Shown here: one piece after another, positions 11,205 to 50,794 of the stretch
Position numbering within the stretch: position 1 is the stretch's first letter
Layout: every line of letters starts with the position of its first letter
NCBI GenBank assembly: GCA_973895155.1
Contig: OZ316894.1
Coordinates: 124,001 to 188,000 of the forward strand
DNA length: 64,000 nucleotides
From: Marsupella aquatica
Lineage: Eukaryota > Plantae > Marchantiophyta
Direction of reading: 5' to 3'
Position numbers and translations under genes: made by a program
The notes under the pieces: model-generated
Database searches by the model: none
Told to the model about the DNA's origin: nothing
The model's input: the letters and a program-made list of their open reading frames with translations, nothing else

Positions 11205-11252
11205 AGGTTACGAGCTCACTACACGGCTCCACTCGTAAGGCAAAATGAGTGC

Positions 11253-11270: not shown

Positions 11271-11287
11271 AAAAACCGGTCGCCGTA

Positions 11288-28360: not shown

Positions 28361-28611
28361 TGCAAGTGCAACAAATACCAATCTTAGAGAAAAAACCACA
28401 TTTGAAGTTTGGATAGAGATCATCTCTATCAATCCAACACAAGTGGCCAACCACAAAGAAAATATATCTGCATACTGATCATATTCATTGAGAAACCGTA
28501 AAGAGGAGATGGATATTGATACTGATGCTCTAATTGTTAAACTTGAAGTATAATTATACAGACTATATTATATCAAATTGATAAGGTCACATCGCTCAAT
28601 CTAGACCTTGG

Positions 28612-31600
28612 CTAACAATGGGATCCATATTCATCAATCAAGATATCATCACCGAGCTCTTGTTGGATCTCATAATTGACATCGGAGGTACTCTCCTCTA
28701 TCCAATAAGGTGCAGACCAAACCGGAGTTATCAATCCCAATTCTCCACTTCTATAAGTTGGATCTTTCTTGTGCTTTTTGTACGAGTCATTGTTCAAAAT
28801 TGATTGAGCAGCATCCAACGCAACTTCAGTTCCTACATCGGGTCCACTTTTCCACACATAACATCGACAATCATATTCAAGTGACTTATATCCAGTTGAT
28901 CCTACTCTCTTCCCTTTCTTTTTTGAGAGTGGAAGGATAACGGGACTTCTTGATTGTGATCGAACAAACACCAATTTGTCATCAGAAGCGGAAAAGAGTG
29001 TATCGGGACAAATTGAAGCACCTGCCTGGTTGTCAGCAGTCGTGGATGCACTTGCTTCATTCACAGGAATGTCAGCTATTTGGATGGGCTGTGGTCTCAA
29101 TCCCAATGTGTCGAGTTCATTGGACTCACCATGCCTCTCCGCACCTTGATTGAGAAGGTTGTTTGAAGAAAGTTTTTCAAAAGTATCAACTTCCATCTCT
29201 TGTCCAGGCACTTGTGGATGGAGACCATCTCTATCCAAGTTATCATCATATTGGCCCTCGTTGGGGCCCATGGGGGCAACATCTGTAATTGGTGAACTGC
29301 AAGGTGCAGATCCAACAATCATATCATCTTCCACAAGGTCAATATTTTCACCCTCGCCAACTTGGTCATCCAAATTCTTCACGTATGCCCCCTCCAATGG
29401 CCCATTGTCTTTGACTGATTGGTCAGCTCCATCTTCTTGATCACCATCTGATTCATCCTCAATAGCAACAGCGGCAGAAGAGGGTTCCCAATGTCTAGAA
29501 CTTCCACCGACATAGCGATCATAACGATCTTTGATGGTGGGAACCTTCTCACAAAGGTACAAAGCGTATGCTTCCACAAAATATCTCTCATGTTGAGAGT
29601 CACAATAAACAAAACATTCACGTTGAGAAAAAAGGGATGCCTTCATCACTTGACCGCTAGAGAAAAAGTCAAGAATCAAATCCCCCGGCTCGGACAGTGT
29701 TTGGATGATCTTTTGGATCATCCGTGTGGGTTTGGCGTGAGGATTCACCCACCCACCCCGAGCGCCGACAGTCTCAAATCGAGGTGCCATGTGCAGAAGG
29801 ATTGCCGCCTCTTCTGGGGTCATCATATTTTTTAGATCTTCATGCAATGACTCCTCGTCCGCGTCCTTGGCCTTTCCCTTTCCCTTGACCTTCTCAACCA
29901 CGAAATCAGTATCCTTTTCACCGTACACCCATTTTGGCTTCATTTGGTTGGGCTTGAACACTTCATCCCAGCTGACGTTCTCCTCGCGAGAAATTCCGGC
30001 AAAGATAACTTCTTCTATTCCTCCCTTCCAACATGAGTCCTGAGGGTGAGGTTGATCATCTCGGTAATAACTCCCATACTCAATGTGAATACTCAGAGTT
30101 TTTGAATGTCCTAATTTACGAAGAGCGCTTAGGACATTCAGTACAAGATAACCCGGATGGACAGTTATCATCACAACAATGGTAGGATTCCGTGGTAGCT
30201 CTACTATATATTGGAAGAGGACCAAAATCTCTACTTCAGTCCACTCTTTTTGTTGAAGTCCGCTGAAATCAACAATTGCAAGAGGGCATGTTGGAGATTG
30301 TTCTTCCAACGACTCCGGATCCACAGTCTTCATTAGGTTGTTACTAAAAAATATGACCCACGGCTGGGTCCGAGAACTTGTCCCACCGCCAAACTTTTGA
30401 CAGTAAATATCATCTAGACGCATCACCAATATCATTGGCAATATCTCACTCTCCTTTGTATGATTCAATTTCAACAAATTTGTCAACCATACATCGCCAG
30501 CTGCTCTTCGGCACCTGTTCAACTCCAAATCTGGACCCAATAATGGGAGGACTTCAATCACTTTAGCCCAATCAGTATCTGCTGGAAAGTGTTTTGGATC
30601 CTTCTTGAAGTAGTAATCTCCAATAAGAGACTTCAATTTGATCAATATCTTCACCTCCTTTGCAAACTCCTCCATCGCTGGAACATCTGACTTATTAGTC
30701 GGATCTTTCTTCAATAAAATCTGACCCGACTTCACCTTGTTCAAAATTCTGGTCAAATCTCTATTTGAGATTTCACCATCAAAACAACGAAACATGGCGA
30801 CGGTTATCGCCTTTTTGGACCTTTTGTTTCCCTGTGTACCAGCTCCATCAGGAAGATCTCCATCAATCCACATCTGGCACACTAACCGCCATATTTCGAA
30901 AAGATCATTCTCGGCAAAAAGTAACCAGTATACATTTTTCAAGTCTTTTCTCCCCATGGTCATCCTTGCCAATGCCAGATAATCCTACAGTCAAAAATTC
31001 GGGAGAATGTTGTAAGTTATCTACAATCAATGAGATTTGACAACACACAATCGCTTGCTTGGACAGAGACCATCTCTGTCCAAGCCATAACCAAAAGTAG
31101 AATGAAGTAAAATCTACAGAATGGAAGGTCTCACTCTTGGACAGAGACCATCTCCATCCAAGTCATAACCCAAAATATATTGAGCAAAAATCAACGTAAT
31201 TGAAGGTCACACTCTTGGACAAAGACCATCTCTGTCCAAACAAGAACTCACCTGAAATTTCTGATTGTCTTGGGCGTTTGATTTGTTGTCCCCGTGGTTT
31301 GGCTTTCTTGGTCTTCCAGTTTCAAGGAATTGTTTTCTTGCATGAACAATTGTATCTTTGAAGCACGATTGAAACACCATCGAAGAATTGATGGCATTTG
31401 ATCTCATTGAGTGCTCAACCAGTATAGCCGATGGCGTAAGGTCTAACAATAATCTAGCCTTCCTATATTTTAACTTTTTTGCCAAAACTGTGAGCTTGGC
31501 ATCAGTTTCGGCCCACTCAATAACCCATTTGGCCGCCCTAGCAAAATGTTGCCCACTGACGGCCAGGAAAACAATCTCGCCTTTCTTCACTCCTGCAAGA

Positions 31601-32711
31601 AGGTCTTTGCGGTCGTTCTCCGTGCTGTTAAAATGAAGCAGCTTTCTAAGCTTCGGATTGTAAGGAAGAAGGTCCGCAACGTGAGGTTCATGTCCAGGGT
31701 TTTTCACCATGGATTCGGCTATGTGCTTCACATGGGCACTGTTGAGCATCCTGTAACATAACCTTGCCGGAGCAGGATAAATTTTCTCCACTGGAATAGA
31801 AAATATTTCATTTATCCCAAAAGTATAGTACTGCTCTATTCTTTGGAGAACATCATTCCCTTCTAAAACCTTCTTCTCCTTCGGGGCATCAAGTTTGTCT
31901 CCCTCATCCTCTGGGAGCATCTGTACGTCCGTTGGAGTTGACCGCGCAATAGTCTTGTCAGTTTTCTATTTCTTCTTTACTGGCTTCTTCTCGGGTTCCT
32001 TCGGCAGTGTCTCAGTTTTCTCGCGCTCCTTCCTCTCTCTTTGTCTTCGCTTCCCTACCACTTGTTTGGAGGCTGTCCCGGCCGTTGTTCCTGCAGTCCC
32101 GGTTGTTGTCTCCTGAGATATTTTTCTAGGCTTCGGAACTTCTTTGTTAACAACTACTGGAGGCTTGTTCACCACTACTGGTGCAACATTTGTAGGCTTG
32201 GTCACCACTACTGGTGCAACACTTGTAGGCTTGGGTAATGATTCTATCCACTTTTCGCATTATCCATTGCAAACTCCTCTGCAAATGCAATTTGCTTGTC
32301 AAGGAAAACACCTGATTCCAAAGATAGGAATCCTGCCTTGTCAAGCAAATTATTTAAAATCCATGTCACCGGAAATGTATAATTCCCTTGGTGTTTATGC
32401 ATATTCAGCTTCACATATTGAAACCCATACATGATGTCAAGTGGAAGAATCCCCTTCACTCCAGCAGTCACCTTTTGAGTTGAATACGACTTAGGGAAAA
32501 AGCCCATTGCCAACACGCCAAGTTCTCCAGCTGTAGACCACTCAACATTGAATTCTGAAGAATACACCTTTGATGGTAGATGTAGTTTAACCCATCGTAT
32601 CCTTTCATGGAGCTCAAGAATGACGGAAACAAACCCTCTTCCTTCAATTCCAATGAAGACTACAAGTCCGAGTACAAGAGTCTCCTGGTCTGCGGTTTGA
32701 CCTTTATGCAC
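28612..32711 (-). pseudogene. ParB/Srx-like domain plus N4C/N6A DNA methyltransferase-like protein (cargo of the TIR element), spliced
   Basis: ParB-like: IPVEKIYPAP..RMLNSAHVKHIAESM..LAVSGQH. GT-AG intron 30985-31251 joins KFQ|DYLAL in frame. MTase-like: HAKPTRMIQKIIQTLSEPGDLILDFFSSG. In-frame TAG at 31966; the 5' end is degraded. Confidence 0.7.
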
Positions 32712-32928
32712 AAAATGGGATCCCGTCTCGTTGACGTGCTAAGGAAATCAAAATCAACTCTGGAGAACTCAAGGCCCCAACGAAAACCTTCTCTGCTCTG
32801 CTCCAACAAGACTCCCTCGGAGCAATCTGCGTCTGAAATCTATGGTTTCAATGCATTTAGATAGCTCCCTGCAACAGTCCCATCTAGGCATATTAGTTTG
32901 GAAATCTTACTTTTGTAATTGACAAAAA

Positions 32929-34940
32929 TTGGACAGGGATCATCTCTATCCTCTACTTGGACAGGGATCATCTCTGTCCAATTTGTAATAAAGATCATCT
33001 CTGTTCGATGAGAGGATACTGACGATCATTATTACAAATTGGACAGGGATCATCTCTATCCTCTACTTGGACAGGGATCATCTCTATCCAATTCCTAATA
33101 AAGGTCCTCAGCATCGTCTGATAGGACATCCTCTGTCGTCAGTTTGGAAATAAATGATATCTATGCAATTGGACAGGGATGATCTCCATCCATTTGGATA
33201 GAGATCATCTCTGTCCAATTCCTAATAAAGATCACTATCTTCTATTTGGACTCTACTTGGACAGGGATCATCTCTGTCCACCACACAAATATTCAACTTG
33301 TTACTGGGATACTCACTTGGATTGAGCGATTGAAAGGCTCTGGAATCCTCGAGGGCCGTCTCTACCACGTCCTCAATGGATGAGAGGTCTGTCTCCTCTG
33401 TTGGCTCACTGACGAGACACACTGGAATAGGTCTGGATGGCTCCATCGTGTGACACGTGGCCTTATGGACACGTGGAGGATTGCAGAGTGTTAGATCTAG
33501 GGCAATTAACGTGGCGGCTATGGGGATAAACTTTAGTGCGGAGGCAGAGTGAAGGAGTGCGGAGGTGTCGGAGCGAAGGAGATTGGAAGCGAATGAGGCG
33601 GAGGAGCGAGCGAAGGAGCGCAAGAGCAGGAGTGGAGAAGAGGAGGAGCGGACGGAGGAGGGAGGAGAGCGAGCGAGGAGCGAGGAGGGAATGAAGAATG
33701 AGGCCCAAGTGGGACCTCCTGCCTCCTTTACCCCCCCCGAGGCGAGGCAAGGCACATTGAACACGTGGGAGGCCGAGGCGAGTGGAAAACCCTAAATGCA
33801 CGGCTGCCTTAAAGTGCGCCGGCCGACCTAATCCACTTGCCCGACCTAATCCACTCGCCGTTGCTTAAGGCTAATCACGCATCGCCTTATCCATAAGGGC
33901 GATCTTCAACAACTGGTATAAGATACTTGGGGTTGTCCGGCTGGTCCTCATTTGGTATTTTCATTTCTAGATTTTTGTTCAGTTCCTCAACCAGGTCCGT
34001 TCATTACGGAGCCCCATTGAGACACTCTTGTTTTCCAGACAGAACATCTAGTTTTAATTTCTTCCACACCCCTGAAGCATTTAGTTTACCAGGTTACTGA
34101 TAACTACCCCTTCAACACAGTATTTTAATCCTTGGTTTGACAACATAAACTAAATTGAGTTTTGGGTTCAAGAATCATTTCCATTATAGGTAACTTTAAA
34201 CCTAATTATAGAATTGTAGCATATTCCATTGATATCCGCAAATTTAGGAATTACTATATCTAAGTTAAGGTTGAAGTGAAAAAATCCCAGCCCAACTCAC
34301 GATTGGGATCATCTCAATCCAACCGTTCTTTGCTCAAACATTTAATTAGTGTGTAGAGTCAATTATCCGTACAGGGGTCATCCCTGTTTGCTATCTGGAT
34401 AGGGATCATCTCTATCTGCTGTTTGGATAGGGATGATCCCTGTCCACCGTAGAGGACTGTAGAGGACCATATGAACTATAGCACTTTATTGGATCCTCTA
34501 CAGTTTGGATCCTCTGGTTGGATAATGATCCGTATTCGCCGTTTGGATGGGAATGATCCCTGTCCGCCATTTGGATAGGGATGATCCCTCTCCACCGTTT
34601 GGATAGGGATGGTCCTTGTCCGCCGTTTTGATAGGGATGATCCCTGTCTACCCTTTCAATAGGGATCCGTGTCCGTGGTCGTTCTCCGGATGATCCCTGT
34701 CCGCCGTTTGAGGTATTTGCTTGATTGGACCCCAATATGAAAAGTTTCCTTGAATCATCCCTGTCCGTTGTTTGGACAGGGAATAGACCCGATCCACCAT
34801 GTGGACAAGGATCAGGCGTGTCCGCCTTTTGGACAGTGACAGACACTATCCGCCGTTTAGGCAGGGATGATCCTTGTTCGCCGTTTGGACACTGACAGAC
34901 CCTATCCGTCGTTTGGACAGGGATCATCCCTATCCGACGT
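32929..34940. repeat. Clusters of the palindromic motif TGGAYAGRGATSATCYCTRTCCA
   Basis: Many full or partial copies at 32929-33280 and 34367-34940; further copies at 28410, 31059, 31137, 31215 and 35513. Confidence 0.9.
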
Positions 34941-34967
34941 CTTGGAGTTGTTTTCAATACAAATCCA

Positions 34968-35543
34968 ATGGAAAGGTGTCACAACATTTTACTTGGTGAA
35001 TCACGGATCAGTGTGAGGGTAACTGATGTCATTCATGGGAGTAGGGTTTTACCTTACAAACACAGTGGGGCTGAAACAATTGACGAGGCAAAAGACTCAT
35101 GGGTTCTCTGGGACGTGGCAGATGTCCGAAGTAGAAAGAGTTTCTCAAAGAAGGATGCGGGTGATGATATCAACATAGAGCGGAGTTTTGTTGTGGAGTC
35201 TCCCTCAGCTGAAATTTCTAAAACTAATTGTGACTATTTCCAACGGTCAAATTGGATGTCAGAGTTGGTCGAACTATACATCGGTTCAGATCGAACCAAT
35301 AGGGTTGCCACAGGGACCATCATTGTGCCTCAAGAAACGGCGATGGTTGACGATGAAATCCTTGGTGAGGACCATGTAGGGATTGCTGTGAAAGATGTGG
35401 TGGAATCACAATACTTTCCCAATTTCGGTGGCGGATTGATTCAACAAAACTACTTGCAAACGGGAAATTTTTGTCGGACATTTTGGTTGAAGGTTCAGAG
35501 AGGATGGAGACGGTGGATAGGGATGATCTCTATCCAAATGTAA
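34968..35543 (+). CDS. Tnp1/En-Spm-like domain(s), probably the frameshifted N-terminus of the transposase
   Basis: HNILLGESRISVRVTDV..LPY..TIDEAKDSWVLW parallels the CACTA domain at 17998-18279. A second partial copy reads VATGTI..LGEDHVGIAVKDV. Confidence 0.5.
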   Translation: MERCHNILLGESRISVRVTDVIHGSRVLPYKHSGAETIDEAKDSWVLWDVADVRSRKSFSKKDAGDDINIERSFVVESPSAEISKTNCDYFQRSNWMSELVELYIGSDRTNRVATGTIIVPQETAMVDDEILGEDHVGIAVKDVVESQYFPNFGGGLIQQNYLQTGNFCRTFWLKVQRGWRRWIGMISIQM

Positions 35544-38245
35544 ATGATAGGGGAATGCCACGCACAAGGCCATACAATTTCAACAAGAGGACTCATGTAG
35601 ATCCGATTGAAAAGAAGAGAAGGCTATTGGAAACCAAGGCAATTTCAAAAACAACGGAAGCTTTGATTGATGAAATTAAAAGAGAGAATTGTTGCAAGCA
35701 GAAATGTTGTCTCACTATGCCAAGAGAAGACATAGAAGATATCCGGATAGAATTTCACGGGATGTCTAGCGAGTCAAAAACATCACACATTTTCAACCTC
35801 TTCCACTACAGAGAAGATGATGTTCGTGATAAGGGGCACCATGTTCTCAAGGGTATGGTTGTATGTAGACATGCATTTGCAATCATCCATGGCTTTAGCC
35901 ACTCAAAATATTATGATTACAAAAGGAGATATGTGGAGGGTTGCAAAATTGGGTTCCATGGAAACACGGGCTCCATGAAAACAAGGTCAAATACCTTGCA
36001 TGCACGAGCTCTATTGGAGGATTTTTTGACTCGAAATGCAGAGCCCATGCCTCATATACCTTATGCTGGGGCTCATGGGACAGACTCCATTGAGTATCGT
36101 CTTCCAGCATGTTACAAGAAGTTGGAGATTCTGGAAGATGTGAGAACAAAGATGAAGGAAGAGGGGCTTCCCCCAGTTACAGAGAATACTCTATACAAGA
36201 TTTGGAGCAAATCATTTGCAAACTTCAGTTTCCATAAAGATGGTGCATTTGCCAAGTGTACTCTTTGTTGTGAATACAAAGATAGTTTGATGCGAGAAAG
36301 AAGGAAAAAAGAACGTGCTGAAATTGAAGAAAAACGAGCGCAACATCTTCGTGAGCAGATGTCACATAGATATGTTTACTATGCTCATCGAGTGATGGCT
36401 AAGCAACATCCAGGGGAATATCTTTGCATCATTCACGACAAGATGGATCAAGCAAAGACGTGGATTCCAAAAATGGTCAGTACTCCTAAATTGCTTTCGG
36501 GTCATGGGATGCCACTACCTATTGCTCTCACAGGGATGTTGACCCATGGAAGGGATCCAGGAGTCTATGCACACTTTAGTGTCACTGGCCTTTGGCCAGG
36601 AGATGCTGATTTCACGGCGACATCCTTGGCTAAGTGTCTTCGAGACCTTGAAGAGTACAATGGAGACAAGACAGGTGACATGTTGGATGGCCTTTATTTG
36701 GAACCTCATAGACCTTTCTTTCAAGCCCTTCTTGACTTTGATGCATTTTTTAAGGGATATTTGGAACCAAAGAGTATTCCAATGAATAGGTATATTGGTT
36801 CTGAAGATGCAGTCGAGAGTCAGACGGAGACGGTCTCCACCCAACATGGTGAGGATCAAGGAGGGGTCATGCATGGGGAACAAGGCAATCCATCTTTCAA
36901 GCCCTTGCCAAGGCACCTAACACTGCAAATGGATAACTCAGCAAAGGATAACAAAAACCAGACTGTCATGGCATTTTGTAGTGAGCTTGTGAGTAGAGGA
37001 GTATTTGAAACTGTTCAAATGTCTTTTCTAATGGTTGGTCATACGCACGAAGATGTTGATGCACTCTTTTTGAAGGTATCATATCAAGTTCAACACAAGG
37101 AAGTTGCAACTCTCCTTGCTCTTATGGCAGAGGTTTGGGAATGTGAGAGCATTCATCCAGTTCCCAGATTGATACAAGAAGTTGCATCTTACAAAGAATA
37201 TCTTCAAACTTTCAAAGTTAAAGATATTCAAGGTCACTCAAAACCCGTATCATTTCTTTTCTCTATGAGAGATAATGTACCAATATTTCAGTATAAGTCC
37301 CATGTAAAGCAAGCTTGGGCTCCAGTTGGAGGAAGGTGCATTTGGGCAACAGATCTGACAACAAATTCTCTTCTTTTACCTAGTGGAGAGCCCTTAGCTA
37401 AATCCATTGGAGAGATACACAAAAAATTTGAAGAGATTATCCCATTTCTTAACAAGTACCTTGATTTTTTGAGAAGGAGTTGCACTGATGAGACATCTAT
37501 AGCATATAAGGAAAGATTTCCTCTTGTGAAATATTGGGAGAGAATTGTGGAGTTGTTGACAAATGGGCTCGCACTAGAAGGGGAGGGAAGTACTCAATTT
37601 CCCTTGAGAAATGGATTTTGGCCTAAGACTAACCACGGCACTGGTTACAAGGTCAATCAACCGGAAAAAAGTGGTCCTCCAAGTGAAGATGAGGAGAATG
37701 CGGAGATGACGGCTCTTCAAAATGAGGTCTTGGAAGAGATGGAAGATCAAGCAGCACCATTTGTTGGATCTCGAGCTGAGAGAGAACAAGGACGGTGGAT
37801 TCCCCTACAGGATATTTGTGAAGGGAACTTTGTATTTCTTCGACCCGAGGATGACTGGGAGAATAAAAATGGTGGAGGTCATTTCTGGTTGGTGAGAGCT
37901 TTGGGTTCGGTGGACCCTGAGCATGAAGTCCCAACTATATCTCCAACAAACCCTCCTCTGCCTCAACAATATGTTCCAATGTTTCCAGTCGAATGGTGGA
38001 GGCCTAAACACTCTAAACTTGATGTGACTGAGAGTGCACGGTATCTAAATTGCTTCATGTCCACTAAGACATGGGAACGAGATCCAGGGTTTGGTGAGAA
38101 CGCTCAACATTGGCAGTATGCAAATTCTGCAATGTATGGTTTTAAATCTGGAATGAAAGAAGAAAACATGGCGGGCAGAGGTTTGAAGATTCCTCGAAAT
38201 GTTCTACAAACTGTCCAAAGTTATCTTCAAAGGATGGACAAGTAG
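35471..38245 (+). CDS. DUF7869/Sola-like DDD transposase, uninterrupted ORF of 924 aa
   Basis: Cys motifs CCKQKC, VCRHAF and KCTLC. Catalytic-like motifs HDKMDQ, QMDNSAKDNKN and FLMVGHTHEDVDALF. Lies between the TIRs. The superfamily label is tentative. Confidence 0.8.
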   Translation: MSDILVEGSERMETVDRDDLYPNVNDRGMPRTRPYNFNKRTHVDPIEKKRRLLETKAISKTTEALIDEIKRENCCKQKCCLTMPREDIEDIRIEFHGMSSESKTSHIFNLFHYREDDVRDKGHHVLKGMVVCRHAFAIIHGFSHSKYYDYKRRYVEGCKIGFHGNTGSMKTRSNTLHARALLEDFLTRNAEPMPHIPYAGAHGTDSIEYRLPACYKKLEILEDVRTKMKEEGLPPVTENTLYKIWSKSFANFSFHKDGAFAKCTLCCEYKDSLMRERRKKERAEIEEKRAQHLREQMSHRYVYYAHRVMAKQHPGEYLCIIHDKMDQAKTWIPKMVSTPKLLSGHGMPLPIALTGMLTHGRDPGVYAHFSVTGLWPGDADFTATSLAKCLRDLEEYNGDKTGDMLDGLYLEPHRPFFQALLDFDAFFKGYLEPKSIPMNRYIGSEDAVESQTETVSTQHGEDQGGVMHGEQGNPSFKPLPRHLTLQMDNSAKDNKNQTVMAFCSELVSRGVFETVQMSFLMVGHTHEDVDALFLKVSYQVQHKEVATLLALMAEVWECESIHPVPRLIQEVASYKEYLQTFKVKDIQGHSKPVSFLFSMRDNVPIFQYKSHVKQAWAPVGGRCIWATDLTTNSLLLPSGEPLAKSIGEIHKKFEEIIPFLNKYLDFLRRSCTDETSIAYKERFPLVKYWERIVELLTNGLALEGEGSTQFPLRNGFWPKTNHGTGYKVNQPEKSGPPSEDEENAEMTALQNEVLEEMEDQAAPFVGSRAEREQGRWIPLQDICEGNFVFLRPEDDWENKNGGGHFWLVRALGSVDPEHEVPTISPTNPPLPQQYVPMFPVEWWRPKHSKLDVTESARYLNCFMSTKTWERDPGFGENAQHWQYANSAMYGFKSGMKEENMAGRGLKIPRNVLQTVQSYLQRMDK

Positions 38246-38517
38246 ACTTAGTTGTTAGAAGCTATAATAATTAAATAGATAGTTACTAGTTTTTATGTAA
38301 GATAGTCACTCATTCAAACATAGTAACTTACGTACTAGTTATTTACTATTCTAATAGTTTTAATGTGAGACCATGCCATTGAGTGTTAGTTATACTATCT
38401 CCTCATTTTCTAAACTTTTGATCGTTATGAATATGAATGTTTGCTTTTTTGCATAATTAAAAATATTTTTCTATTCATTCCTTTCTTTTAAATGATTATA
38501 ATAAGAGTTGGTAGGAA

Positions 38518-38820
38518 AATGTACACTTTTTAGGCCAAATGTACACTTTGTTGCACTCAAAGTTACACTTTCTAGACCAAATGCACTTAAATGTACACTT
38601 TTTAAGCCAAATGTATGTTTCTTTCACTCAAATGTACACTTTCTAAGCCAAATGTACTCAAATGTACATTTTTAAAGCCAAATGTACCTATTTTGATGTT
38701 CAAATATACACTTTTCGTTGCCCAAATGTACACTCTTTAGGCCAATTGTACACTTTTCTATCCCCAAATGTACACTTTTCCAAGCCCAAAAGTACACTTT
38801 TCATTGCCCAAATGTACAAA
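38518..38820. repeat. Subterminal AAATGTACACTTT repeat array
   Basis: More than ten degenerate copies here and about four at 26970-27050. Confidence 0.88.
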
Positions 38821-38850
38821 TAATAATACACTTTTAATGAATAGGCTGAT

Positions 38851-41616
38851 TTTCACCGATCGAGTTACAACATCACCATTCAATGGAACGCTTCTTTCCA
38901 AATCAAACTCAGCAGCGTTCGACAGGAGGAGATTGGTGGCTTCCTCAAAGAGACGCGGTGACCCCGCCAGGTCCGCCGATCTGAAGGCAAGCTCAAAAAT
39001 AGTTGGGCCAGTTCCTCTGCTCAATCCCCTTTTGTATGCAGTATAAGCAGCAATTTGAGCAACCGCTCTATTTTGGTCCGTTTTGCATCCTTCAAACAGA
39101 CCAACCTTTTTTTTCTGTTGCCATGCTTTCATTCCAGCATGCCTAGATTCCGAACCAGTACAATTAGGAATCATCCCAGCCTCTTCGGCACTCTTGCTCT
39201 GAAACATTGCACGCAAGGGTTTAGTACATGTAAGAAATTGCACACAAAAGTGGCAACACAATGGAAATAACAGTAGCGCCAGACGCTAATAAACTGATGA
39301 TGATATTTCCATGTAAAGAACCGTTTAACACAGAATAAAGGTAGTCCTTACATCACTCATAGTCCAAACGGATTATTAGCGCTCGATGCTACTATTGCGG
39401 ATAAGGAACTCTTCTATCTCACACATGCTTCACTAGCGCCGAGCGCTATTAATGGGAACATGCATCCTAGAGCAGTGTATAACTCACCAGTCTTATGAAG
39501 TTCCCCCATTGTCTCCATCGGACAACCCACCAAGACAGCCACCCTTGCAGCATCCGAAGTTTGCCTGAGTGACAATTGCCAGACCTCCACCAGTCATCGA
39601 TTTCCCTCGAGATTCGAAATGCTTTCAAGAAAGTTGGCGCGTTCCAAAGACGATCCCACATCTCCTTGTGCTCTCCGTGCTTTCCATCTTTTACACCTTC
39701 TCGGGAATGATGATGAAAAGATTGGAAAAAATGAAAGGCATCTGATCTTTCTCGCTCTGGGTCAGGTACACCGTCAAAGAACACGTTTCGAACAGCATTC
39801 CAACCAGCCTGAGCATTGTCCGCCATGAATCCCCGAATTGTAACATCCTGTAAACCATTTTCATCGACAACCTCTAACATCAAACGCCAGGCTCTCTCCA
39901 GAGATTTTGCATCTTCGGCCTTTAGCTCACAAGTGAATATGGTGCAAAGTGCCCGGTAATGATGATCATATACATGGGCACTGAAAGTAAGCCAATCTGC
40001 CGTGCTTCGATGCATCACGTCAAAACTTACCCATGAACCCTCTAACGACCCACCAGGTTTCATTCTTTGGAGCAGGTCCAGACCACTCCCGTCACCTTTT
40101 ACGTCATTTTAAAGATATGAGCACTCTCGTCCCGACAGCCTTGACCAGGGAGCAAGAACCTATGAAGAAAAGGCAGTCGGATACACTTTTGCATCCTCAC
40201 AAGAAATTCCAGTTCCCCTTTCCCCTTCTGATCTTGACGGACACTCCTTAACACGGATGCAAACTTTTGAGGAGATGCGACGACCATCAGGGACTCCCAG
40301 ATTTCCTTCTCTTCTTCAAGAGAGATTTCTTCAACAGAGGCCTCGCAAAATGTATTCGTCAGTGTCTCAGTCGCAGAGTTTTTAATCCCTGTTGGGGATG
40401 CCATGGGGTTTGCAGTGAATCCCTTCTCCAGATGAGACCTTGCAACCTTTTCTGCCTCCCTCGAAAAGACCCATCGACTGGGATGATTGTGAAATCCCAT
40501 ATGAACAGCTAGTCGCGACATGTGGGCCAAAGACTTAACGTCAACTTTTGCAGATGGATACATGTAGAACATTAGAGCAGGGCAGGCCTCAACGCACATT
40601 GGAGGTTCGGAGCAATGGTGACAAACAACTCCACCTTCGAAGATCAATTCCCCAACTTGGAATGGGCCCGAAAGTTTTGGGGTTCTTGCCCACATCTCAT
40701 TATTTCGAAACTTGTTGTCTTTCCACCACGGACAAGCATTATTTCGACACTGCAGCGATCCCGTACACTGGACTTTCCCGAAATCCCACATTTTCTTCGG
40801 AAGAACATTTGAAGACGTTTTCACAATCCGAGTCCAATAATAACAATCCTTACCACGATCCATATCTTTCAAACGTTCACCTTTTGCGTTCACACAGTCT
40901 ACCGGGGGTAACTCAAAAACCACATTCCCATTGTAAGATGTGGGAAGACTAGGCACTACGTGATGAACAAAATCACTCCCCCTTATAAATTGAGACAATT
41001 CACTATGACCTTTGGATTTCAAGATTGTATCCATTGCACTCTGCTGGTACACAGTCAAAGGCACAATCATTTCTCGATCCGCATTAGACTCCTTTTTAAC
41101 CTCGGATGGGTAAACTGGAATCTTCTCTCCGAGAGTAGTTGTCGCTTGCTTATCATCTCCAGAACTTTCCGAGAGTTTGATGACATCGAGTTCAGCCGCT
41201 GTGGGAGGACGAGTATAGGAGGCCCCAGAATCTCTCAAAACAAAAACCTCATATTCTTTTTGAGCCTCCAGAGTCCAATATCTTTGACCATGAACAACAT
41301 CGTAGAAAACTGGAGTCTCCTCCAAACAAACCGACACTAACGAGATCGCTAAAATAGACTCCTTGGCGACATCAAATCTCACTCCCAAATATTCCTCTGA
41401 AACACGCTTTGATTAAGATGATTTGAGGACGGGAATTGTGATTACATCCCGAGTGTCCTTCCTCATGACAACGATATTTTGAGCCATGGCTTCAAAAGAG
41501 GGATATGCATTTTCCCCCACGCAAAATGAAATATGTTTATCATGAGATTCGAGTACGAGAAGTAAACGTTCCATTCTCATTATAGAGTCGTTATAGATTT
41601 GGACGCACTCCATCAA
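38851..41616 (-). pseudogene. MULE transposase, N-terminal part: GCM/WRKY-like zinc domain plus DDE core
   Basis: CTGSLQCRNNAC..CHHC..C..GFHNHP (GCM-like). D in FDVMH, D in MADNAQAGWNAVRNVF, DAFH at the CxxH position, E in GSESRH. Frameshift near 40100; intron at about 39210-39487 (acceptor not pinned down). Confidence 0.8.
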
Positions 41617-42268
41617 TGACGTTTTGTCGTCTTACCAACGGCAGGATTTGGGTTCATAGTTACTAGCGCCTGGCGCTACCTCTAAGTGTAAAACACTCTT
41701 GGGTGAGGACTACGAATGCCAATAATAATAGCGCCTGGCGCTACCTCTGGGTGCAAACATTCTTGGGTGAGGAGTACGAAGGCAATAAATAATAGCGCCT
41801 GGCGCTACCTATTTCAATGGACTTGAAAACATTCAATGGAAGGATAAGTACGATAACGCGATACAGTACGAGTCATTAAGTTGGCACGCTTGAAGATCTC
41901 CACTGGATCTTCGCGAATCCGATCCGCCCGGGTCCAAATGTGTCAGAGAGGAAGCGTCCACAAAAGTTATATCAGAGGGTCCTCTTCGAAGTGGGTACCC
42001 AGGACCAAGTGCGAACTCTCCTTATATCTAGTCGTTCTCCTCCAATGTCCTCATTGTCAAGCCATTCTTCACTGAGTCACAGTTGTGGCTCATCTTTCGG
42101 GCGCGTGGTTCCCGTTCTCATTTTTGGGCCCAGTTGTTCTTTTTGGCTTTCGTGCGCGTTCTTGTTCTCCTTCTCGTCCTCGTTTCTCATTCTCGTCCTA
42201 GTTCACGCTGTTGTCCTCCTTCACGTTCTTGTTCGCGCTTCTTGTTCTCGTCCTCGTCCTCACTTTCA

Positions 42269-42696
42269 ATGGCACCTCCACGAGGGAAGGCAAAGGAGGA
42301 GGCACTTGTCCCGAGCGACACCGACCGGGAGACCCCCGCATCAAATAGCTTACCGCCTCGGCCGAATGCCGAGAGGATGACGGTTCCAATCTCGAAGAAG
42401 GGGAAACTCATCTCAAAGATGAAGAATGCCCCAACTATGGGCCACAGCGAAGGATCCAGTCGGCCGAATGTGAGCGGCCCGACTTTTGTTCCCGCTAGGG
42501 ATATCGCCCCTGCTTCAGTCGGCCGTCCAAGAGCCGACACTATCTGCACGGGAGTCTCCTATCTTCTTCATCCACTGAGAGTGATCATTCTTCGAGCGGG
42601 GACTCATCACCGAGCAGGCGAGGATTTACGTGGTATGGATTGAGCGACTCGAATGATGACTCCGATGCATACAAGCCAAGTTGGTGGGAAGACTGA
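42269..42696 (+). other. Possible small, disordered third ORF of the MULE element (frameshifted)
   Basis: MAPPRGKAKEEAL... lies between the two divergent genes; no domain recognised. Confidence 0.25.
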
Positions 42697-44483
42697 TTTC
42701 CCGTTGTCAGAGCGTATCATTCGAGTTCTGGAGAGACTTGGAGGATCCATCAAGGTTGATAGGATCTATTTCCACTCGGTTTTTTCCGATAGAAAACCCA
42801 TACCGTTCCTTCCTCGTATGCCGGATTTCTAGTGTACTGTAACATTTTGTATATGAACGGCATAGCCGTTCGTTTTTACCTCGGTGTCAATGCTTTTGAA
42901 TTCAGAAGACCAAGCTTTAATTTTGGGTTCTACTCCCGTGTTTGCATTGTATTTCTGAATGCAAACCTGATCTATTTCTTTGAAATGGCCGTAAACACTC
43001 GTTTGCTGTCAATGTTTTTACTAGCGTTCGGCACTATTATGAGAAACAAAGTGTCCGTAACACTGTCGTGACATGTCTTATCTCTAAAGTGTTTTTGATA
43101 GCGTTGGGCGCTATTAATGAAAGGAATCACAAGTCAGACCCGTCCGGAGTTATTTTTACTTTTATTTCAACAAATTTTGTTCAATTGATGTGCATTTTAA
43201 TAGCGCCAGGCGCTATTGTAATTCATTGGAATATTCGTTGAATGAATGGGTTCATGTGGTCATGTTTATTGTCATTGGACTCCGATTTCATCATTTATTT
43301 GAATACTAGCGCCGAGCGCTACTAAAGTTGGCTTGTCGACACCTGCACAAAATTGGAAAATTTATAGACAATTGTGTTCATAGTACTGCCCGTAGCTACA
43401 TTAAGATGGTTTTTCATATACATTTGAAAGTATGTTGTATAATAGCGCCTGGCGCTATCCACAACTACCGACACTGATGTGGTTCCAACGGTCACTTTCC
43501 AACGGTAATATTATAGTAGATTGAGGTTCACGGAACCCTTTTTGCTTTTGTCTGGGATGAAAGTCCAATCGGAGAATGCCATCTGTACTTGGGACCGTTG
43601 TAATCGAATGGCTGGTTCTATTGTATCGGTGTCTTAATACAAGGTGGAGATCGCTCGTTTGGGATAATTTAGTCCGTCTAGCGCTCAGACCTCGGACTGT
43701 ACGAGTTTGTCAAGTGCATATGTGCGTCCTTTATTGGTCCCGTACATTTTGAGATGTGATCGTCACAAGAACTGCACGGCGCATACGACAGTGCTGGGTG
43801 GTCGAGTTGCTCTCCACGACAACTTTTGGCTGGGTGATACGAGAATGGGGGAGGCTGATGGTGGTCATTCTGAGTCCTCTCAGTCTTCGTTCGCTGGTTC
43901 AGTATACACCCGTCGCGTCACTCGATCGACTGCGTCCCTGTCGACTTCCGAAGCTGAATCTGCACAGCCCTTCCCGAGGTCGAGGAGAGGGAGAATGGAC
44001 CCTAAGGACGTCTCCATGGGTGAAGTCAGTGACATAGGCTTATCGATGGACGAGGTAATATCAAAGCACGCATTGTCGTTCGGGAAGGATTTTCGAGGAT
44101 TCGATAAGGAGCCACCTCAAATTCCTCTTTGTAGATTGCTCCCCATGGAGGTTGTTTGAACCTTACAGAAAGAAAGTGCATCGATCGAGAAGTTGAAAGA
44201 ATCATTCCGTGTCACCGGGTACAACTCACGCATTGGGATGCCTTTCTACGTTCAGCCTGCAAATGCCAATGGGGTTTCTCATATATGCACCACCGAGATC
44301 CGGGACTCTTGGGATCCAATCTGGGTCACAGAGAATGACAAGTTTGAGGAAGAGTGTGATGCGGACCCAGCGTTCCATATTCTAAAAGATAAAATGTTTT
44401 GTGTGTTTGACGGAAATCATCGATTGTACTCGTGGTCAATCGTCACGAGGGAGAATCCGGACAACTTGAAGTATCATCCTCGT

Positions 44484-46941
44484 TGTGACGCCAATGACAT
44501 GGTCCTTATTTTGTAATCTGATTAAGTAGGTTGCTGTATGCAAGGAGTAGCTATTGATATTACATAACAATTAGCAAGATGGCAAGAATAAGGGCAATCA
44601 TGGCGTTAAGAGTAGGGAAATAAAAACTATGTCGCGGGTGGTCGATGACCATATCTCTTTCAATATGTCACCAAATCCGGATCTGTAAAGAGCATTGGAA
44701 AGATCTGGTCAAGGCGAGTAAAATCGATATAAAACACTCAGGAAACGGAGGTGTATTAAGAGAGATACGGCCTGATTAGTGTGACGGGTTAACTTATGGC
44801 CGGAATTAGTGGATTCGGCTTCAGTTTCGGGTTAAATCAAGCTCGACCACGGCTTAGCTCAGGTAAGCACGGCTTCAGCTTAGCTCAGGTGAGCACGGCT
44901 TCAGCTTAGCTCAGGTGATCACGGCTTCAGCTTAGCTCAGGTAAGCACGGCTTCAGCTTAGCTTAGGTCAGCACAGCTTCAGCTTAGGCTTAACCTAGGT
45001 TCGGATTAGATTGAACTCGGGTTAGCCTAAACTCGGGCTCAGGTTAGCATAGGTAAGTTCGGGTTCGGGCTCAGCTTAGGCTAGGTTAGCGGATAGCGGG
45101 TAGCGGCCTAACCCGAGACCACGGGTTAGCTCTACTCGGGTTAGATAGGATAGCTAGGTTAGCCGAACTCGGGTTAGCTATGTAACTCGGGTTAGCGCAG
45201 CAGTGAGTACCCCCTCTCGGTTGCGGGGGCATAACTCTCTGTGTATTTGACCAAATCGGCTATAATTGACCTCGTTGGAAAGAGGAGCTCAAGCCGCTTC
45301 CAACGCTGCTATCCACGCAGCAAATGGTTGAATACAGAAATCGGGAGAGGAGGCGTAAGCTCGCGAAAACCATGGAGGAGGGCCAAATCCGAAGTACATA
45401 GCCAATTCGAGATAGAAATAAAGCTGCGAGTTAGGGTTCAGTAGTTAGAGATAGTGGCGGCTCTGTTAGGGCTGGGATGGGGCTCCAGCAGCGTAGTACC
45501 CAGCCATTTGGGCTCAGTATGAGAGTATATAGAGCAGCCCCCCGGTAGAGATGGGGGGGGGACTTCAGTTGTGTGATCTCACTTAGACTGAGCAGCAGGG
45601 AGGAGCTCTGTGCAAGCAAGGCTGGACTTGGACGCTGCGTGTTGGGGGAGAGCTTGGTTGTGCTATTACTCAGGGAGTAATCAGCCAAGCTTCACAGCAA
45701 CGGGTTGCTAGGTTTGCGAGCTGGATTGTGGCTCTTTCTAGTGAGTAGCACAACTGGGTTCTTTTCCCCCGATACAGAGCCTTGGTGATAGGTGATGTAT
45801 TGGTGATTGTAAACTGTGGGGAGGATGTCAATTTGATTTGTGGTGAGCACATTAGGGAGGCTGAGACACTGATTGAGGGGCAGCAGTAGGAGCATTTACA
45901 GTTCAGTCTGGCAAGGCTACGTGATCCATGGGGAGTCCCGGCCTTTGTCTGGTGGAGAGCACTAAGGGATCTATGGCCAGAGCAGAGCTTGCAGGGCAAG
46001 CGTGAGGCCGGGCCTCATTGCAGTCTGGGGTAGATCGCCGTTAGGCCTGGTACCAGCTTTGAAGTCGAGTCAACTATGTATGCGTAACTTGACGTTCTGA
46101 ATTGGAGGGTGTGAGATCTGTATGTGCCCCCAAGAATGAAGTGCAGTGAAGGAGGTTGAGTTCAGGATTGAGTTTGCAAGGCAAGTACGGGATTGGTTTG
46201 AGTCCAATATGCCGTCGCAATCTGGAGTGAGCCGGGCTCAGGTTCAGGATTGAGCTTGCATGGCAAGCATGGGGCTTGCGGGGCAAGCACGCTGCAATCT
46301 GGAGTAGACAGCCTTCGGGCCTATTGTTCGGATCAAGTGTTCTCAGTGAACTATTGTGCACATCGTTGAATCTAATTGAGTTTTCCTCTCAGGCCTCATT
46401 TCTCTCATGGATGTGTGTGTGTGTGAGGCAATCTAAGTGTATGATGGGACTAGCAGCGCCACTGAGAGGTGTACAGGGTGCATTGAAGCGGGCTGGGTGA
46501 GGACTGTCATAGCTCTGATTGCTGAGAGTGGAATGGCAGAGTGGTGGGGCAATGGCTTAGAAGTCCCTAAGCCGGGAATCAGTCAAGAGTCACTGGTTTA
46601 TGGGTATATTCCGGCGGCGGAATAGAAACATACCTATGACAGTAAGCATACGTATAGACCTATGCGCACCGTAGCGCTAGGCCCTGTGTGTACGGGCCCG
46701 ATATGAAGACTCCTTCTCACCAGAACTATCATGAGCGCGGATCTGATTCCCAACCTTGGTTCTTAGGGATTGAGCTTGGGTGATGTGTGACGGAGTCTTG
46801 TTATGATATTCTGGTGTTAAGGGCATAAATTGGTGTTTACCGGCCTTCACAGCATCCCTTCGTGATCCTCAGGTACAAGGAGATGGTTTTGGCACCCATA
46901 GTGACGTCTTTGGTGTTAAGACCCATGTCAATCGCGTGACA
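44484..46941. mobile_element. Solo LTR (2458 bp)
   Basis: TGTGACGCCAATGACATGG...CCATGTCAATCGCGTGACA. TSD CTCGT at 44479-44483 and 46942-46946. Removal restores KYHPR|VICVIF. Confidence 0.92.
44848..44990. repeat. 26-bp tandem repeat inside the solo LTR
   Basis: GCACGGCTTCAGCTTAGCTCAGGTRA, about five copies, followed by degenerate CTCGGGTTAG repeats. Confidence 0.85.
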
Positions 46942-49900
46942 CTCGTGTGATTTGCGTCATTTTCAATGGTGACAGAGGTTCACTAGTTGAGCTCGAGGCG
47001 GCAATGCACACCGTGAACCAGTAAGTTCTATTCGTTAACTGTTGTTACCCCTGTCATTCATTTTGGACCAAACATGCTTTGCGAAAGTGTTCATTCCCCA
47101 ATTTTTGCTAGCGCCCGGCGCTACTAATTCCTTTTCATTGCATCCAGGCTTGGACAAGCAGTCGTCGAGCCTTCCTGGATTCTTGACGCGGACAGAATTT
47201 CCCAAATTCTGTCATGTGATCTTGATCACTATAAGCCACTCATCGACAGCGCGAACATGGCAAAGTTTGAGGCGATCCAAAAGAAGACGAGAAAGGGGTC
47301 TTGGTTTACACATAAAATGCCACAGGATGCTCTCATCTACATTCTGTGTGTGGACAAAATCAAGTCTTACTCAAATCAATTTAAGTCTGATATGGCTTTA
47401 GCCAAAGCTCAAGGGGCTTCTTGGTCAGAAGAGGAGACCATAAAGAGGCATGAGGCAATGATGAAGGAGGCGACCAAAGATTGGTCGATCAAAGTGACAA
47501 AGATCACCCCTTTACTTCATCCGGATTTTGGAGATTATTTGGGAACCTGTGCTGAGATGTATCCCGTAACTGAGAAGAACAAACGGGAGAAGAAGCCAGA
47601 CACAGTTGTATGCACAATGGATCGAGCCAGGTTGTTTACTGCTGTTTCATACCTGGATCCAAAATTGAGGTGCACCTTTCTAGTAGCCCACTGCACTCCC
47701 AAGATTCGGAAACAGTTTTTCCATCCTGCAAGTGTCAACGACGAGCCTGTGAAGCAGTGGTGCCATACATGGCATACTTGGAATTTTGTGGAGGGAATTG
47801 CAACTGGAATGCTTCACACTTCCTTCAAACAGATTTCTGACCGGATGCCAGCTGACCGTCTCACAAAGTCTGGGTGTGAGTCAATGGAGGCCATGCTTAA
47901 GATCATTCTCGATGAATTCAAAAACTTTGGGGATCTTGTCAAGGCAAAATTCTTCAACAACTTGTGGCCTTCCAAATATGCGGACAAGGAAGATTACACA
48001 GAGCGGAACCGGAAGAGAGCCAAACGATATCTATACCGGTTTTACATGTGGATGGAGCTTAGATCTCCTGACACTCTATGGGCATACCCGGCTGCATTTC
48101 AGAAATGGGTGTCTATCGAAGAGGGAGACGCTCTTGCCGACCTTTATTCGATGTACCCAGCGGAGGGAAAGTTTCCACCACGTTCATTGTCGGAGTGGGA
48201 GAGACTTCACTGTCCGTGGTACCTCAACACAGACAAATGGGATTTACCGTTCAACGAAGCTGAGAAGGATGCCTTCATGAAGTTGCAGAAGTCCCAGATC
48301 CCTGCCAACTATGTGTCTGCAATGAAGCAAGGTCTCCAGTCTGATGTTGACGAATCTGCATCTGAGTTACAGAAGAATTGTGAGTCTCTTGTCATGCACG
48401 TTGACCGAAGCCGTAAGCCAAGAGCAAAGGCGAAGAATGAGTCAGCTGCACCAAGTAACTCCACAAGGTCCTTCAAGAAAAGTGAGTAGTCTAAGCGCTT
48501 TTTGGTTACTTGTTGGCGCTGCTTATGCAGGAGTTTCATTAGGAAATTCCTTTGATTAATAGCGCCTGGCGCTAGTCTGAAAGGTTGGACTCATTCAAGT
48601 TTCTGTGTCTAACAGGAGGTCGAAAGTCTGACACGGAGGTCCCGGCTGCCGAAGGGAAGAATGATGCAACTCCTCAGGCATCGGAGGCAAACACTGGAGC
48701 TCAAGAAACTCCGGATCAAGGGACCCCGGATGGTGCTGGCAAATCCATTGTCCCTCTTGACGCAACTAGCACGAAGAAAAAGAAAAAGAGAGGCGCCGGT
48801 GAGGACAGAGTAGCATCATCTACTCGAGACGTTATTTCCTGTGGACTCCAGAGAGATGTCAGGAATTTTAAGCAAAGGTGTTCTAGACACTGTTTTGTGG
48901 AGTCCAATTTAAATGAATTTTATGATTCGGTATTTAACAAGGGGATGAAGCCCATGTGGGTTACTAAAGTTGAGGCCTGGGGAAAGGAATTGGTAAAGTC
49001 AGGAGACAGAGAGAAGGGAGTAATGCATGGCGGAAAAGAGAGGGGCTTTGGTGTGGATGCTGGTTTCATCTACATTCCCACTGGATTAAAACCAACACTT
49101 CTTGATCGGAAGGTTCCCAAGTGGAACCTTTAGGATTACACTATTCCCAGCTCTTTCTTCCGAGCCATGGAGCCGTTCCTTGCAGACGATGGCCTACTTG
49201 CAATTTTACACAGAGGAGACTATGATCAGGTATCTGAAGTGATTGCGGCTTGCCAGGATTCTAAGTGTTTCCAGTGTATTTCAACCCACCATGTGGTCAT
49301 GACTACACCAATGTATAGGCCCCGATCTGATACTCAGGTAACAATTCCTATGGCACATACCAGCGCCCGACGCTACTATCAGCATTTGCAATATCTACAA
49401 TTCACTTATCTTTCGTAAGGATGAATGGTTGACTAGCGCCAAGCGCTAATATATGTGTCTGTTTTCTTATACTGCCTTCATTGGGAAACTGTGTTGCAGA
49501 TATTCACACTTACTCTTAATATATTTTGCCGCATTTCGACAAAGGGAAGGGTCCCGAAAGACCCCAAGTTCCGGCCACTATCGAATGAAGAAGACCCTTC
49601 CATCACTAACATTATTGGGTTTTCGTTGCCGCGACATGACCCGACTCCTGAGCTCCAATTTGCAGGAAATTCACGATTGCCTGTGGGTTTCATGCAAACT
49701 ATTTTGGAATTGGTGACTCTTCCTAGAGATATTGTTATGGACTGGACAGTAGGTTCCGGTAGTACGTTTGTGGCTGGAGATTATTCTGGTCGCTTTGTTG
49801 TTGGGCTGGAAAATCGGCCAGAGTTTGTTGATACTTCCGATAGGGTCTTCCTTGATCTTTTACAGAACAAAGAAGTGGTTGCACCAACTCCTCCTAAGAA

Positions 49901-50794
49901 GATTCCTGGAAGTAAGAAGCAGGACAGGCTCCGTGCTATTCTAAATTTTGATTCGAAAGACGAGGATGAGGGTGGCAATGCTTCTCAGCAACCTAAGATG
50001 ATGAGGTGTCGAAGAATGTGGTGGACCTTGGATCTGGAGATGAGGACAGTGAAGAGTCAGAAGAGTCATTTTCTTTAGCTTTCTTTCTCTCATTGTATAC
50101 TTTTTTCCAAAGAACTCTACTCCCTTTTGTCTAGAAAATTCGCCCGATTTCCCGACTTCGACTAAAGAACTCCAGTTCAAATTCTCAGGTTAGAGTGGAA
50201 TCTTTGGAGGTGTTTTCAACTTCGAAGGAACGTCTCTAGGAACGTTGTACAGACCCCGGAGAAGCCATTTGTTCTCCCCTCTTATGCTGAAAAGGCGGCA
50301 CGACGGGCAGATTCAGTCAGGACGCTTACTTGGGAGAGTAAGGGTCTTAGACTCAGGAGAGGCTCAGATAGAAAGTTTGTGCAGAATCACTTCGTAGATG
50401 ATATTGCAAAATCCAAGTATGTGGACGACGAAGCAGAGTCCACTGATAGATCAGAAAGTAGCGGTTCTGAATCGGGCTCAGAGTTGAGTGGTGGTTGTGG
50501 ATCTGGTCTTTAGTTTTCCTTGTTTTATTTACCCGTTTATGGAGAACGACGACACTCAATAAGAACGTCGTGACGTGTCGGATTAGAGTAGCGCCCGACG
50601 CTATTACTGTAGCCGGTAGTTCAAAGAGGTTTTTATTTGGTTGTTTTCCTTATAGCGCCCGACGCTAGTATAAATGTACTCAATGGCCGCTTCACGTCCA
50701 ATATATGTGACAATATTTTCATACCCTTCGGTGTCTTTTTTTGGGTGCACATTTGCTGGTATGAGTTTTGCTGTTTGCTGTTTGCTGTTTGCTA

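Follow-up and report, generated by a model that had tools for sequence, protein, structure and literature searches.

Nested transposons and their accessory genes

The 64,000-nucleotide stretch of the liverwort Marsupella aquatica analyzed here (contig OZ316894.1; hereafter the window) was found to hold three nested insertions, namely a Mutator-like element (MULE) that harbors both a Sola-like DNA transposon and an insertion resembling a solo long terminal repeat (LTR) (Table 1). According to a preliminary description of the same DNA, two unrelated DNA transposons at this locus each carry a spliced accessory gene with a ParB-like and a methyltransferase-like part, divergent from the transposase. 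The two elements and their genes were borne out, each gene being oriented away from its own transposase, and the Sola-like element turned out to lie inside the MULE. These are almost certainly true accessory genes, and the results support the linkage of transposon-borne genes encoding a methyltransferase fold to palindromes that are private to each transposon family and placed like the targets of VANC in Arabidopsis.

Table 1. Elements, genes and palindrome arrays in the window (positions of the window; TIR, terminal inverted repeat; TSD, target site duplication; ORF, open reading frame; E, expectation value).
Feature	Position	Strand	Properties
Mutator-like element	25256..50811	.	11,157 bp after subtracting both insertions; multiple copies in public runs along its whole length
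MULE-type transposase gene	25950..41631	-	broken (frameshift near 40105, stops); split by Sola-like element
Sola-like element	26919..38850	.	11,932 bp; 38-bp TIRs (89%); 4-bp TSD TTTC; within MULE transposase ORF
NIF/FCP1-like HAD phosphatase gene (third Sola gene)	27327..28478	-	frameshifted here; PF03031, E 1.6e-5 and 6.7e-7
Sola accessory gene, last exon	28612..30984	-	790 amino acids (aa) comprising a helical region, a beta-class methyltransferase fold whose motifs are degenerate (IVDFSG; LDFFSSGQ) and an acidic tail
Sola accessory intron	30985..31251	-	267-nt GT-AG, phase 0; three Sola palindromes
Sola accessory gene, upstream exon	31252..32711	-	N-terminal domain and basic linker followed by ParB/DGQHR-like domain (SGQH); one stop and frameshifts in this copy
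Sola accessory gene, candidate 5' exon	33317..33446	-	inferred from sequence alone
DUF7869 (Sola-like) transposase ORF	35369..38245	+	958 aa open; PF25273, E 1.1e-41
MULE accessory gene, ParB/Srx-like exon	43845..44483	+	DGNHR with the Box II arginine; in-frame stop
Solo-LTR-like insertion	44484..46941	.	TG...CA; 2,458 bp; TSD CTCGT; inside MULE accessory exon; high copy
MULE accessory gene, remainder	46947..50513	+	exons 46947-47020, 47148-48481, 48616-49337, 49500 to ~50513; FIYIPTG at motif IV position; intact MDWTVGSGST motif I
Sola palindrome array	28410..35536	.	TTGGAYAGRGAT-S-ATCYCTRTCCAA, 23 bp; 20 strong sites
MULE palindrome array	25621..50667	.	core TAGCGC(C)N(G)GCGCTA, A/T-rich flanks, 15 bp; 18 sites

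The MULE has short and degenerate TIRs, both ends beginning with GGG, and its matching termini are flanked by the 9-bp TSD AATGGGTTT (25247-25255 and 50812-50820), a length within the 8-11 bp range given for MULEs (PMC6446971). Its ends also fit contigs assembled from public runs, one of which (X1) stops at 25282 and another (X5) begins at 50813. The transposase gene carries FDVMH, FMAD, AFHF and GSESRH motifs on the minus strand, which we take, by eye, to be the MULE DDE core; no transposase match was found for it in Pfam, PHROG or NCBIfam. The N-terminal region is Cys/His-rich, and the intron at 39487-39201 contains three MULE palindromes. When the Sola-like element was excised in silico, the transposase frame was regained save for one stop, and contigs from two studies (X1 and X3) connect 26914 to 38851, i.e. 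they represent the empty site. The inserted element has the TIRs, the 4-bp TSD and the DUF7869 transposase of a Sola-like transposon, DUF7869 being a Sola marker. A TSD of 4 bp is described for Sola-1 (PMC12477816). The DUF7869 transposase probably starts further upstream than 35369, and an upstream frame at 34896-35540 (plus strand), weakly matching Transposase_23 (E 0.036), is probably its true 5' part.

Frame-keeping GT-AG introns had been reported for both accessory genes. This held for the Sola intron (31251-30985) and for three MULE introns (47021-47147, 48482-48615 and 49338-49499), whereas the 2.46-kb interruption of the MULE gene at 44484-46941 corresponds to the solo-LTR-like insertion with its 5-bp TSD and is not an intron. 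The gene ends given earlier also need revision, as they probably lie further out, at ~50513 for the MULE gene and in the candidate exon at 33446-33317 for the Sola gene. The candidate intron that this exon would define (33316-32739) contains seven palindromes, and the MULE gene may likewise begin further upstream, at the ATG at 42269. The Sola intron junction is matched by two predicted proteins (P0001 and P0013), which is support from gene models, not from RNA. Alignments of divergent DNA contigs extend across the MULE exons but are interrupted a short way into intron 1 (joints 47025-47029 to 47145-47146) and into intron 3; divergent relatives keep the exons and differ in the introns. Two loose contig ends terminate at MULE intron palindromes (47123 and 48558).

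Both accessory proteins comprise at least ~1,120 aa and are, as had been noted, very different from each other in sequence, the best mutual blastp hit (E 0.17) not being significant. Both window copies are pseudogenes, with stops at 44157-59, 49131-33 and 31966-68 and frameshifts near 49994, 32697 and 32250. Among the differences listed for related contigs, at least three of these lesions (stop 49131 and frameshifts 49994 and 32697) are missing from the relatives, and both families therefore probably hold intact accessory genes. Of the 42 coding differences examined, 17 are such that a CpG is formed by the family allele; CpG decay of this kind in the window copies would be expected under methylation of the elements by the host.

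Private palindromes

The claim of a private palindrome in each element was confirmed, the two words being mutually exclusive despite the nesting and far more frequent than expected by chance. The MULE word had 15 matches at no more than one mismatch (shuffle mean 0.03; 0/100 shuffles) and the Sola word 18 at no more than two (shuffle mean 0.00; 0/100 shuffles). With weight matrices, 18 MULE sites were separated by a clear score gap from the next candidate, and the 20 strong and ~10 weaker Sola sites were all located within the Sola-like element, with none of the 20 outside.

None of the 18 MULE sites is situated in coding DNA, although the latter accounts for 65% of the element in the gene models. 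All four MULE introns contain at least one, in the form of isolated palindromes with unrelated flanks, and others are found near both ends (25621; 50589 and 50653). Neither the nested 11.9-kb Sola-like element (0/18) nor the solo LTR contains any. Among the strong Sola sites, 17 out of 20 are non-coding, against a coding fraction of 69% in our gene models, and the remaining three, one per Sola gene, encode DRDxLxP (e.g. at 29215 in the last accessory exon). As clustered sites are not independent of one another, the significance is overstated by these counts. Some Sola sites belong to a 28-bp tandem array, and the outermost strong ones lie 1.5 kb and 3.3 kb from the element ends.

The methyltransferase-like domain

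The C-terminal segments, earlier read as the end of N4-cytosine/N6-adenine (N4C/N6A) methyltransferases, both match PF01555 (N6_N4_Mtase), at profile positions 163-219 only. The Sola match (E 1.6e-5, 25.4 bits) is below and the MULE match (E 2.1e-7, 31.5 bits) above the cut-off of 26.7 bits, and the same positions are matched by two Sola homologues (P0001 and P0002). Alignment with hhalign against 62 phage enzymes gave probabilities of 54% (Sola) and 93% (MULE), neither of which was reached in any of 40 column shuffles. Sequence matches in the PDB were M.RsrI (E 3.5e-4) and CcrM (E 0.027) for Sola, and M1.HpyAVI, PvuII and MboIIA (E 0.003-0.02) for MULE. In both proteins motif I, which binds S-adenosylmethionine, is placed near the C-terminus after the position of motif IV, as in the beta class; it is kept in the MULE protein and shortened in the Sola protein to DFFS(S/G)GQ, one residue short of GSG. 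A low-confidence model of the Sola domain (mean predicted local distance difference test, pLDDT, 41) shows an order of strands and helices consistent with the beta class, and its ten top Foldseek hits were all beta-class methyltransferases (E 2.2e-4 to 2.1e-3, 220-264 columns, root-mean-square deviation ~12).

The catalytic motif IV, (D/N/S)PP(Y/F/W), was found in the domain of none of the 11 models, as compared to DPPY, DLPY or DPPF in 55 of the 62 reference phage enzymes. In the Sola group, the aspartate at the predicted strand end is kept in all five aligned sequences (DFS, DFS, DFG, DFA and DLI; P0065, P0099 and P0105 were left out of this alignment), and the window protein has DFSG at this position. 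The MULE protein has YIPTG; its VDAGFIYIPTG aligns with VDLVLTDPPYG of the reference, a tyrosine standing where the aspartate is expected, and most related contigs show no change at this position among the 40 of 751 differences listed. In CcrM and N4CMT, the PPY residues position the target base (PMC10406627). Because none of the 11 models has a DPPY-type motif in place, both accessory proteins are likely pseudo-enzymes, degenerated by different routes, and probably neither transfers methyl groups. The proposal that the transposons mark their own copies by methylation is consequently not supported, motif IV being absent from both proteins and from the Sola-type homologues.

The ParB-like domain

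Of the N-terminal ParB/Srx-like motif reported earlier, the residues themselves were retrieved in the expected frames, i.e. SGQH in Sola (exon 31965-31252, minus strand) and DGNHR in MULE (44160-44483, plus strand), whereas a ParB fold as such was confirmed by no profile or fold search. Weak leads are a DndB match (E 0.052) in one of 56 Sola-type homologues scanned, and one cluster with 11% ParB_N (0.92) among the Atlas neighbors of the MULE piece; the predicted model of the region is too poor for an assignment (pLDDT 42). In 71 aligned Sola-type sequences the pattern is IPVe.i..pP..vYR.lN..HV..i...M...P...P..ADL ... F.AISGQHS..AA ... R..RIL ... S...N, the order of which follows Boxes I, II and III of ParB. 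Glycine, glutamine and histidine of the SGQH motif are conserved in 67, 66 and 71 of these, respectively, an upstream arginine in 57 and a downstream asparagine in 62. The pattern resembles the DGQHR signature, in which a QR pair and FxxxN are described together with FGGCHR-type signatures (PMC4619093), and the FDGNHR of the MULE protein is similar to both types.

Loss of the Box II GxxR arginine in ParB-fold proteins abolishes nucleotide binding (PMC12704722). At this position the Sola family has arginine in 0/71 sequences (serine in 64, leucine and threonine in three each, phenylalanine in one), and a clamp dependent on cytidine triphosphate (CTP) is therefore unlikely for the Sola protein. 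The suggested sliding clamp is thus weakened for Sola, while the MULE protein of the window keeps that arginine in its FDGNHR. A phage ParB is known to activate a DNA-modifying enzyme without needing its nucleotide-binding residues (PMC13229309). No ParA ATPase partner was found among the 20 ORF pieces of the elements that were scanned.

Distribution of the Sola-type family

A full HMMER scan with the Sola N-terminal domain yielded 99 clusters (50% identity), and the named homologues are all from liverworts (Calypogeia fissa, 2 of 4 entries looked up; Riccia sorocarpa, 10 of 20). The matches are mostly single-exon fragments. Of the 56 that were scanned, three joined the ParB-like part and PF01555 in one chain, one was fused to DUF7869 and one to NIF, i.e. 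to the other two Sola genes. All five are Riccia models, from which it appears that both the fusion and the company of the other two genes recur in another genome. The identity of the window protein to P0001, taken in blocks of 50 residues, is 36-62% for the greater part of residues 1-500 and 14-28% within the acidic linker. The Sola accessory protein also has an N-terminal domain encoded at 32253-32711 (minus strand), which is without a Pfam match and is kept in P0003, P0004 and P0006 at 27-36% identity.

Relation to known systems

Transposon-borne ParB-methyltransferase genes are already described as a class in algal transposons, namely Ectocarpus Sola1 and Bostrychia Plavaka; they were proposed in 2025 as accessory genes, with neither a defined target site nor a functional test in the sections describing them (PMC12477816; 10.1101/2025.02.11.637652). 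The 1,104-aa accessory protein of Sola1-1_Ec32 from Ectocarpus is similarly carried by a Sola-type element with a 4-bp TSD, is encoded opposite to the transposase and combines a ParB-like with an N4C/N6A methyltransferase part, and its authors propose an accessory class that binds and modifies its own element (PMC12477816). Likened here by description, it differs in its origin from a brown alga, in an enzyme presumed active and in a TIR of 282 bp instead of the 38 bp found here, and the string "palindrom" is absent from the main text of the report (PMC12477816). In the present elements the gene with the PF01555 match does lie opposite to the transposase, and the ParB part is recognized by motif only.

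Plavaka genes PAG2 and PAG3 of Bostrychia and their homologues in Mutator elements of Chondrus, also likened by description, share a transposon-borne ParB-like domain, inverted-repeat arrays as proposed targets and a PF01555 gene on the same elements; PAG2 and PAG3 are common to the EnSpm and Mutator superfamilies, and the ParB assignment is likewise weak (HHpred E 0.29). There, however, the functions are divided between separate genes (ParB with a 2-oxoglutarate oxygenase, methylase with a SET domain), and the repeats are tandem and adjacent rather than distributed across introns (10.1101/2025.02.11.637652). The VANDAL elements of Arabidopsis are also MULEs with an accessory gene, VANC, and have family-specific, partly tandem motifs in introns, intergenic and terminal regions, as is the case for VANC21 (PMC5735166). 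A comparable placement in non-coding parts is seen here, with coding sites amounting to 0/18 in the MULE and 3/20 in Sola, but the VANC motifs are 9-base non-palindromic words (PMC5735166). No plant transposon accessory family was among the Pfam matches, and hence no link to VANC emerged from the Pfam scan, no direct comparison with VANC having been made.

Phage fusions of ParB and N6/N4 methyltransferases show the same order of a ParB-like N-terminus followed by a beta-class enzyme (L002; PMC12704722), but they are 430-510 aa long and keep GHGR and DPPY/SPPY, as opposed to the spliced genes, more than 1,100 aa, long helical insert and degenerate motif IV found here. Two such fusions in tandem (with SPPY and DPPY) are present in the record of Acidithiobacillus phage AcaML1 (L002:840-3655), which served as reference only. 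MpDN4MT1 (10.1101/2021.02.12.428880) and N4CMT (PMC8885841, PMC10406627) are known examples of a beta-class fold that a liverwort or an animal has acquired from bacteria; these are, in contrast, host genes with an intact TSPPY/SPPY and not transposon cargo, MpDN4MT1 being described without extra domains. Chlorophytes have fusions of ParB and helix-turn-helix parts with another methylase group (PMC4738411). In the literature covered, which excluded most subscription papers and Repbase, we found no such genes in land-plant transposons, no catalytically dead members and no defined dispersed palindromes. What appears to be new here is thus the occurrence in land plants, the apparent loss of catalysis by two routes and the defined candidate target words.

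Proposed function

We tentatively regard the accessory protein as a non-catalytic, sequence-specific self-recognition factor for its own transposon family, VANC-like rather than a methyl writer. It would originate from a phage-type ParB-N6/N4-methyltransferase fusion, with the dead enzyme fold serving as a DNA- or chromatin-binding scaffold, and would bind the palindromes of its own family around the divergent promoters and in introns, possibly as a dimer on the two half-sites; long palindromes of odd length would suit a dimeric reader. Copies of the own family would in this manner be picked out and then shielded from host silencing or helped to mobilize, and they may be kept open against host 5-methylcytosine, with VANC-like anti-silencing as the outcome. 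Binding to the palindrome seems probable. Our judgment is evenly divided between anti-silencing and pure help in transposition. As compared to the preliminary description, the parts concerning a writer and a clamp are weakened and the part concerning self-recognition is strengthened.

Several observations weigh against this interpretation. No significant ParB, DndB or Srx match was obtained for the accessory proteins in Pfam, PHROG, NCBIfam or the PDB, no ParB Pfam match occurred in the window pieces or the 56 scanned Sola-type homologues, and the hhalign comparison with a profile of 40 phage ParB sequences was not significant. The register of motif IV is our own reading, as in the MAFFT alignment the DPPY of the references fell a few columns ahead of it in the Sola sequences, and it relates to a model with a pLDDT of 41. 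In the MULE protein, a stray DLPF occurs at residue 603, which is ~170 residues ahead of the domain and precedes a long low-complexity linker. The search for homologues of the MULE accessory protein was negative, and the conclusions on it rest on one family. Finally, the palindromes could instead be read by the transposase.

A rather unlikely alternative, although the most probable of the rivals, is a transposition helper, for which CACTA TnpA is a precedent; by occupying the palindromes it would synapse or shape the element so that the transposase can act, without any role on chromatin. The short, degenerate TIRs of the MULE, its palindromes near both ends and the general ability of ParB-type proteins to bridge DNA would agree with this. 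Against it, sites in the interior predominate, located in introns and near the divergent promoters, and even the outermost strong ones of Sola are far from the ends. That the transposase or a host factor reads the palindromes, the accessory gene being separate cargo, is improbable. The Cys/His-rich N-terminal region of the MULE transposase could fit such a reader, and the transposase of AtMu1 is reported to activate cognate copies on its own (10.64898/2026.08.24.746577), but it is two unrelated transposases that share the pairing of a ParB/methyltransferase-type gene with an odd-length palindrome, and the inverted repeats of Bostrychia Plavaka adjoin its ParB gene (10.1101/2025.02.11.637652).

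Similarly improbable, and slightly more so, are active, atypical amino-methyltransferases that write N4-methylcytosine (4mC) or N6-methyladenine on their own elements. The MULE protein keeps motif I (DWTVGSGST) with an acidic residue after it, the Sola group keeps the motif IV aspartate and a P..KP segment, the Ectocarpus protein is predicted to methylate (PMC12477816), and Marchantia has a real 4mC enzyme (10.1101/2021.02.12.428880). Against this, the base-positioning PPY part (PMC10406627) is missing in both proteins, tyrosine replaces aspartate in the MULE protein, and most related contigs show no change there among the differences listed. The notion of decayed passengers, with palindromes as by-products of local duplication, is very hard to sustain, for although both window copies are broken and some Sola sites lie in a tandem array, lesions 49131, 49994 and 32697 are missing from related contigs, invariant motifs are kept across the 99 homologue clusters, and the sites in every MULE intron are isolated, with unrelated flanks.

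Returning to the self-recognition factor, a broader scenario can be sketched, which as a whole we consider unlikely. Land-plant transposons of at least two superfamilies would have adopted a phage-type ParB-methyltransferase and palindrome code, inactivated the enzyme twice by different routes and come to rely on the protein for reading family-specific addresses. In the MULE, where the GxxR arginine is kept, it would then be a nucleotide-gated clamp that loads at palindromes, spreads on chromatin and desilences the whole element. With two divergent proteins and two sharply defined candidate target words, which by their nesting serve as each other's control, the locus bears on how a transposon recognizes its own copies and on whether a ParB-type clamp works on chromatin, and it suggests that at least some members of the class are not writers. 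If true, this would add a second system of anti-silencing whose sequence is unrelated to VANC, and tools for sequence-specific work on the epigenome might be derived from it.

Other features of the elements and the window

The third Sola gene, NIF/FCP1-like, has LDLNKIL at the position of the catalytic motif, and one Riccia model (P0091) fuses NIF to a ParB-like domain. It could represent cargo resembling an RNA polymerase II C-terminal domain phosphatase, i.e. a second regulatory module. The subterminal regions of the Sola-like element (26950-27050 and 38517-38825) contain AAATGTACACTTT repeats spaced ~22 bp apart and distinct from the internal palindrome; these are more likely than the palindrome to be transposase sites. 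Repeated CTCGTACGAG/CTCATACGAG words are found in the left subterminal region of the MULE (25280-25450), and the right end has a short match to them. The solo LTR (44484-46941) contains a 26-bp tandem array (44826-44987) and has short inverted matches in common with LTRs at 1566-1798, 11510-11742 and 61990-62018. A contig from X3 connects its left end to 28755, which suggests another insertion in a Sola copy.

Elsewhere in the window, a Gypsy-type retrotransposon (~1300-14800, minus strand) has very long direct repeats of ~5 kb, 9,940 bp apart, which contain ORFs of their own; a gag zinc knuckle, reverse transcriptase and integrase lie between them. A CACTA-like remnant is situated at 16152-18276 (plus strand; Transposase_24, E 3.7e-4), and at 61150-64000 an inverted repeat of 659 bp (87%) surrounds an ORF for a 442-aa coiled-coil protein (62673-63998).

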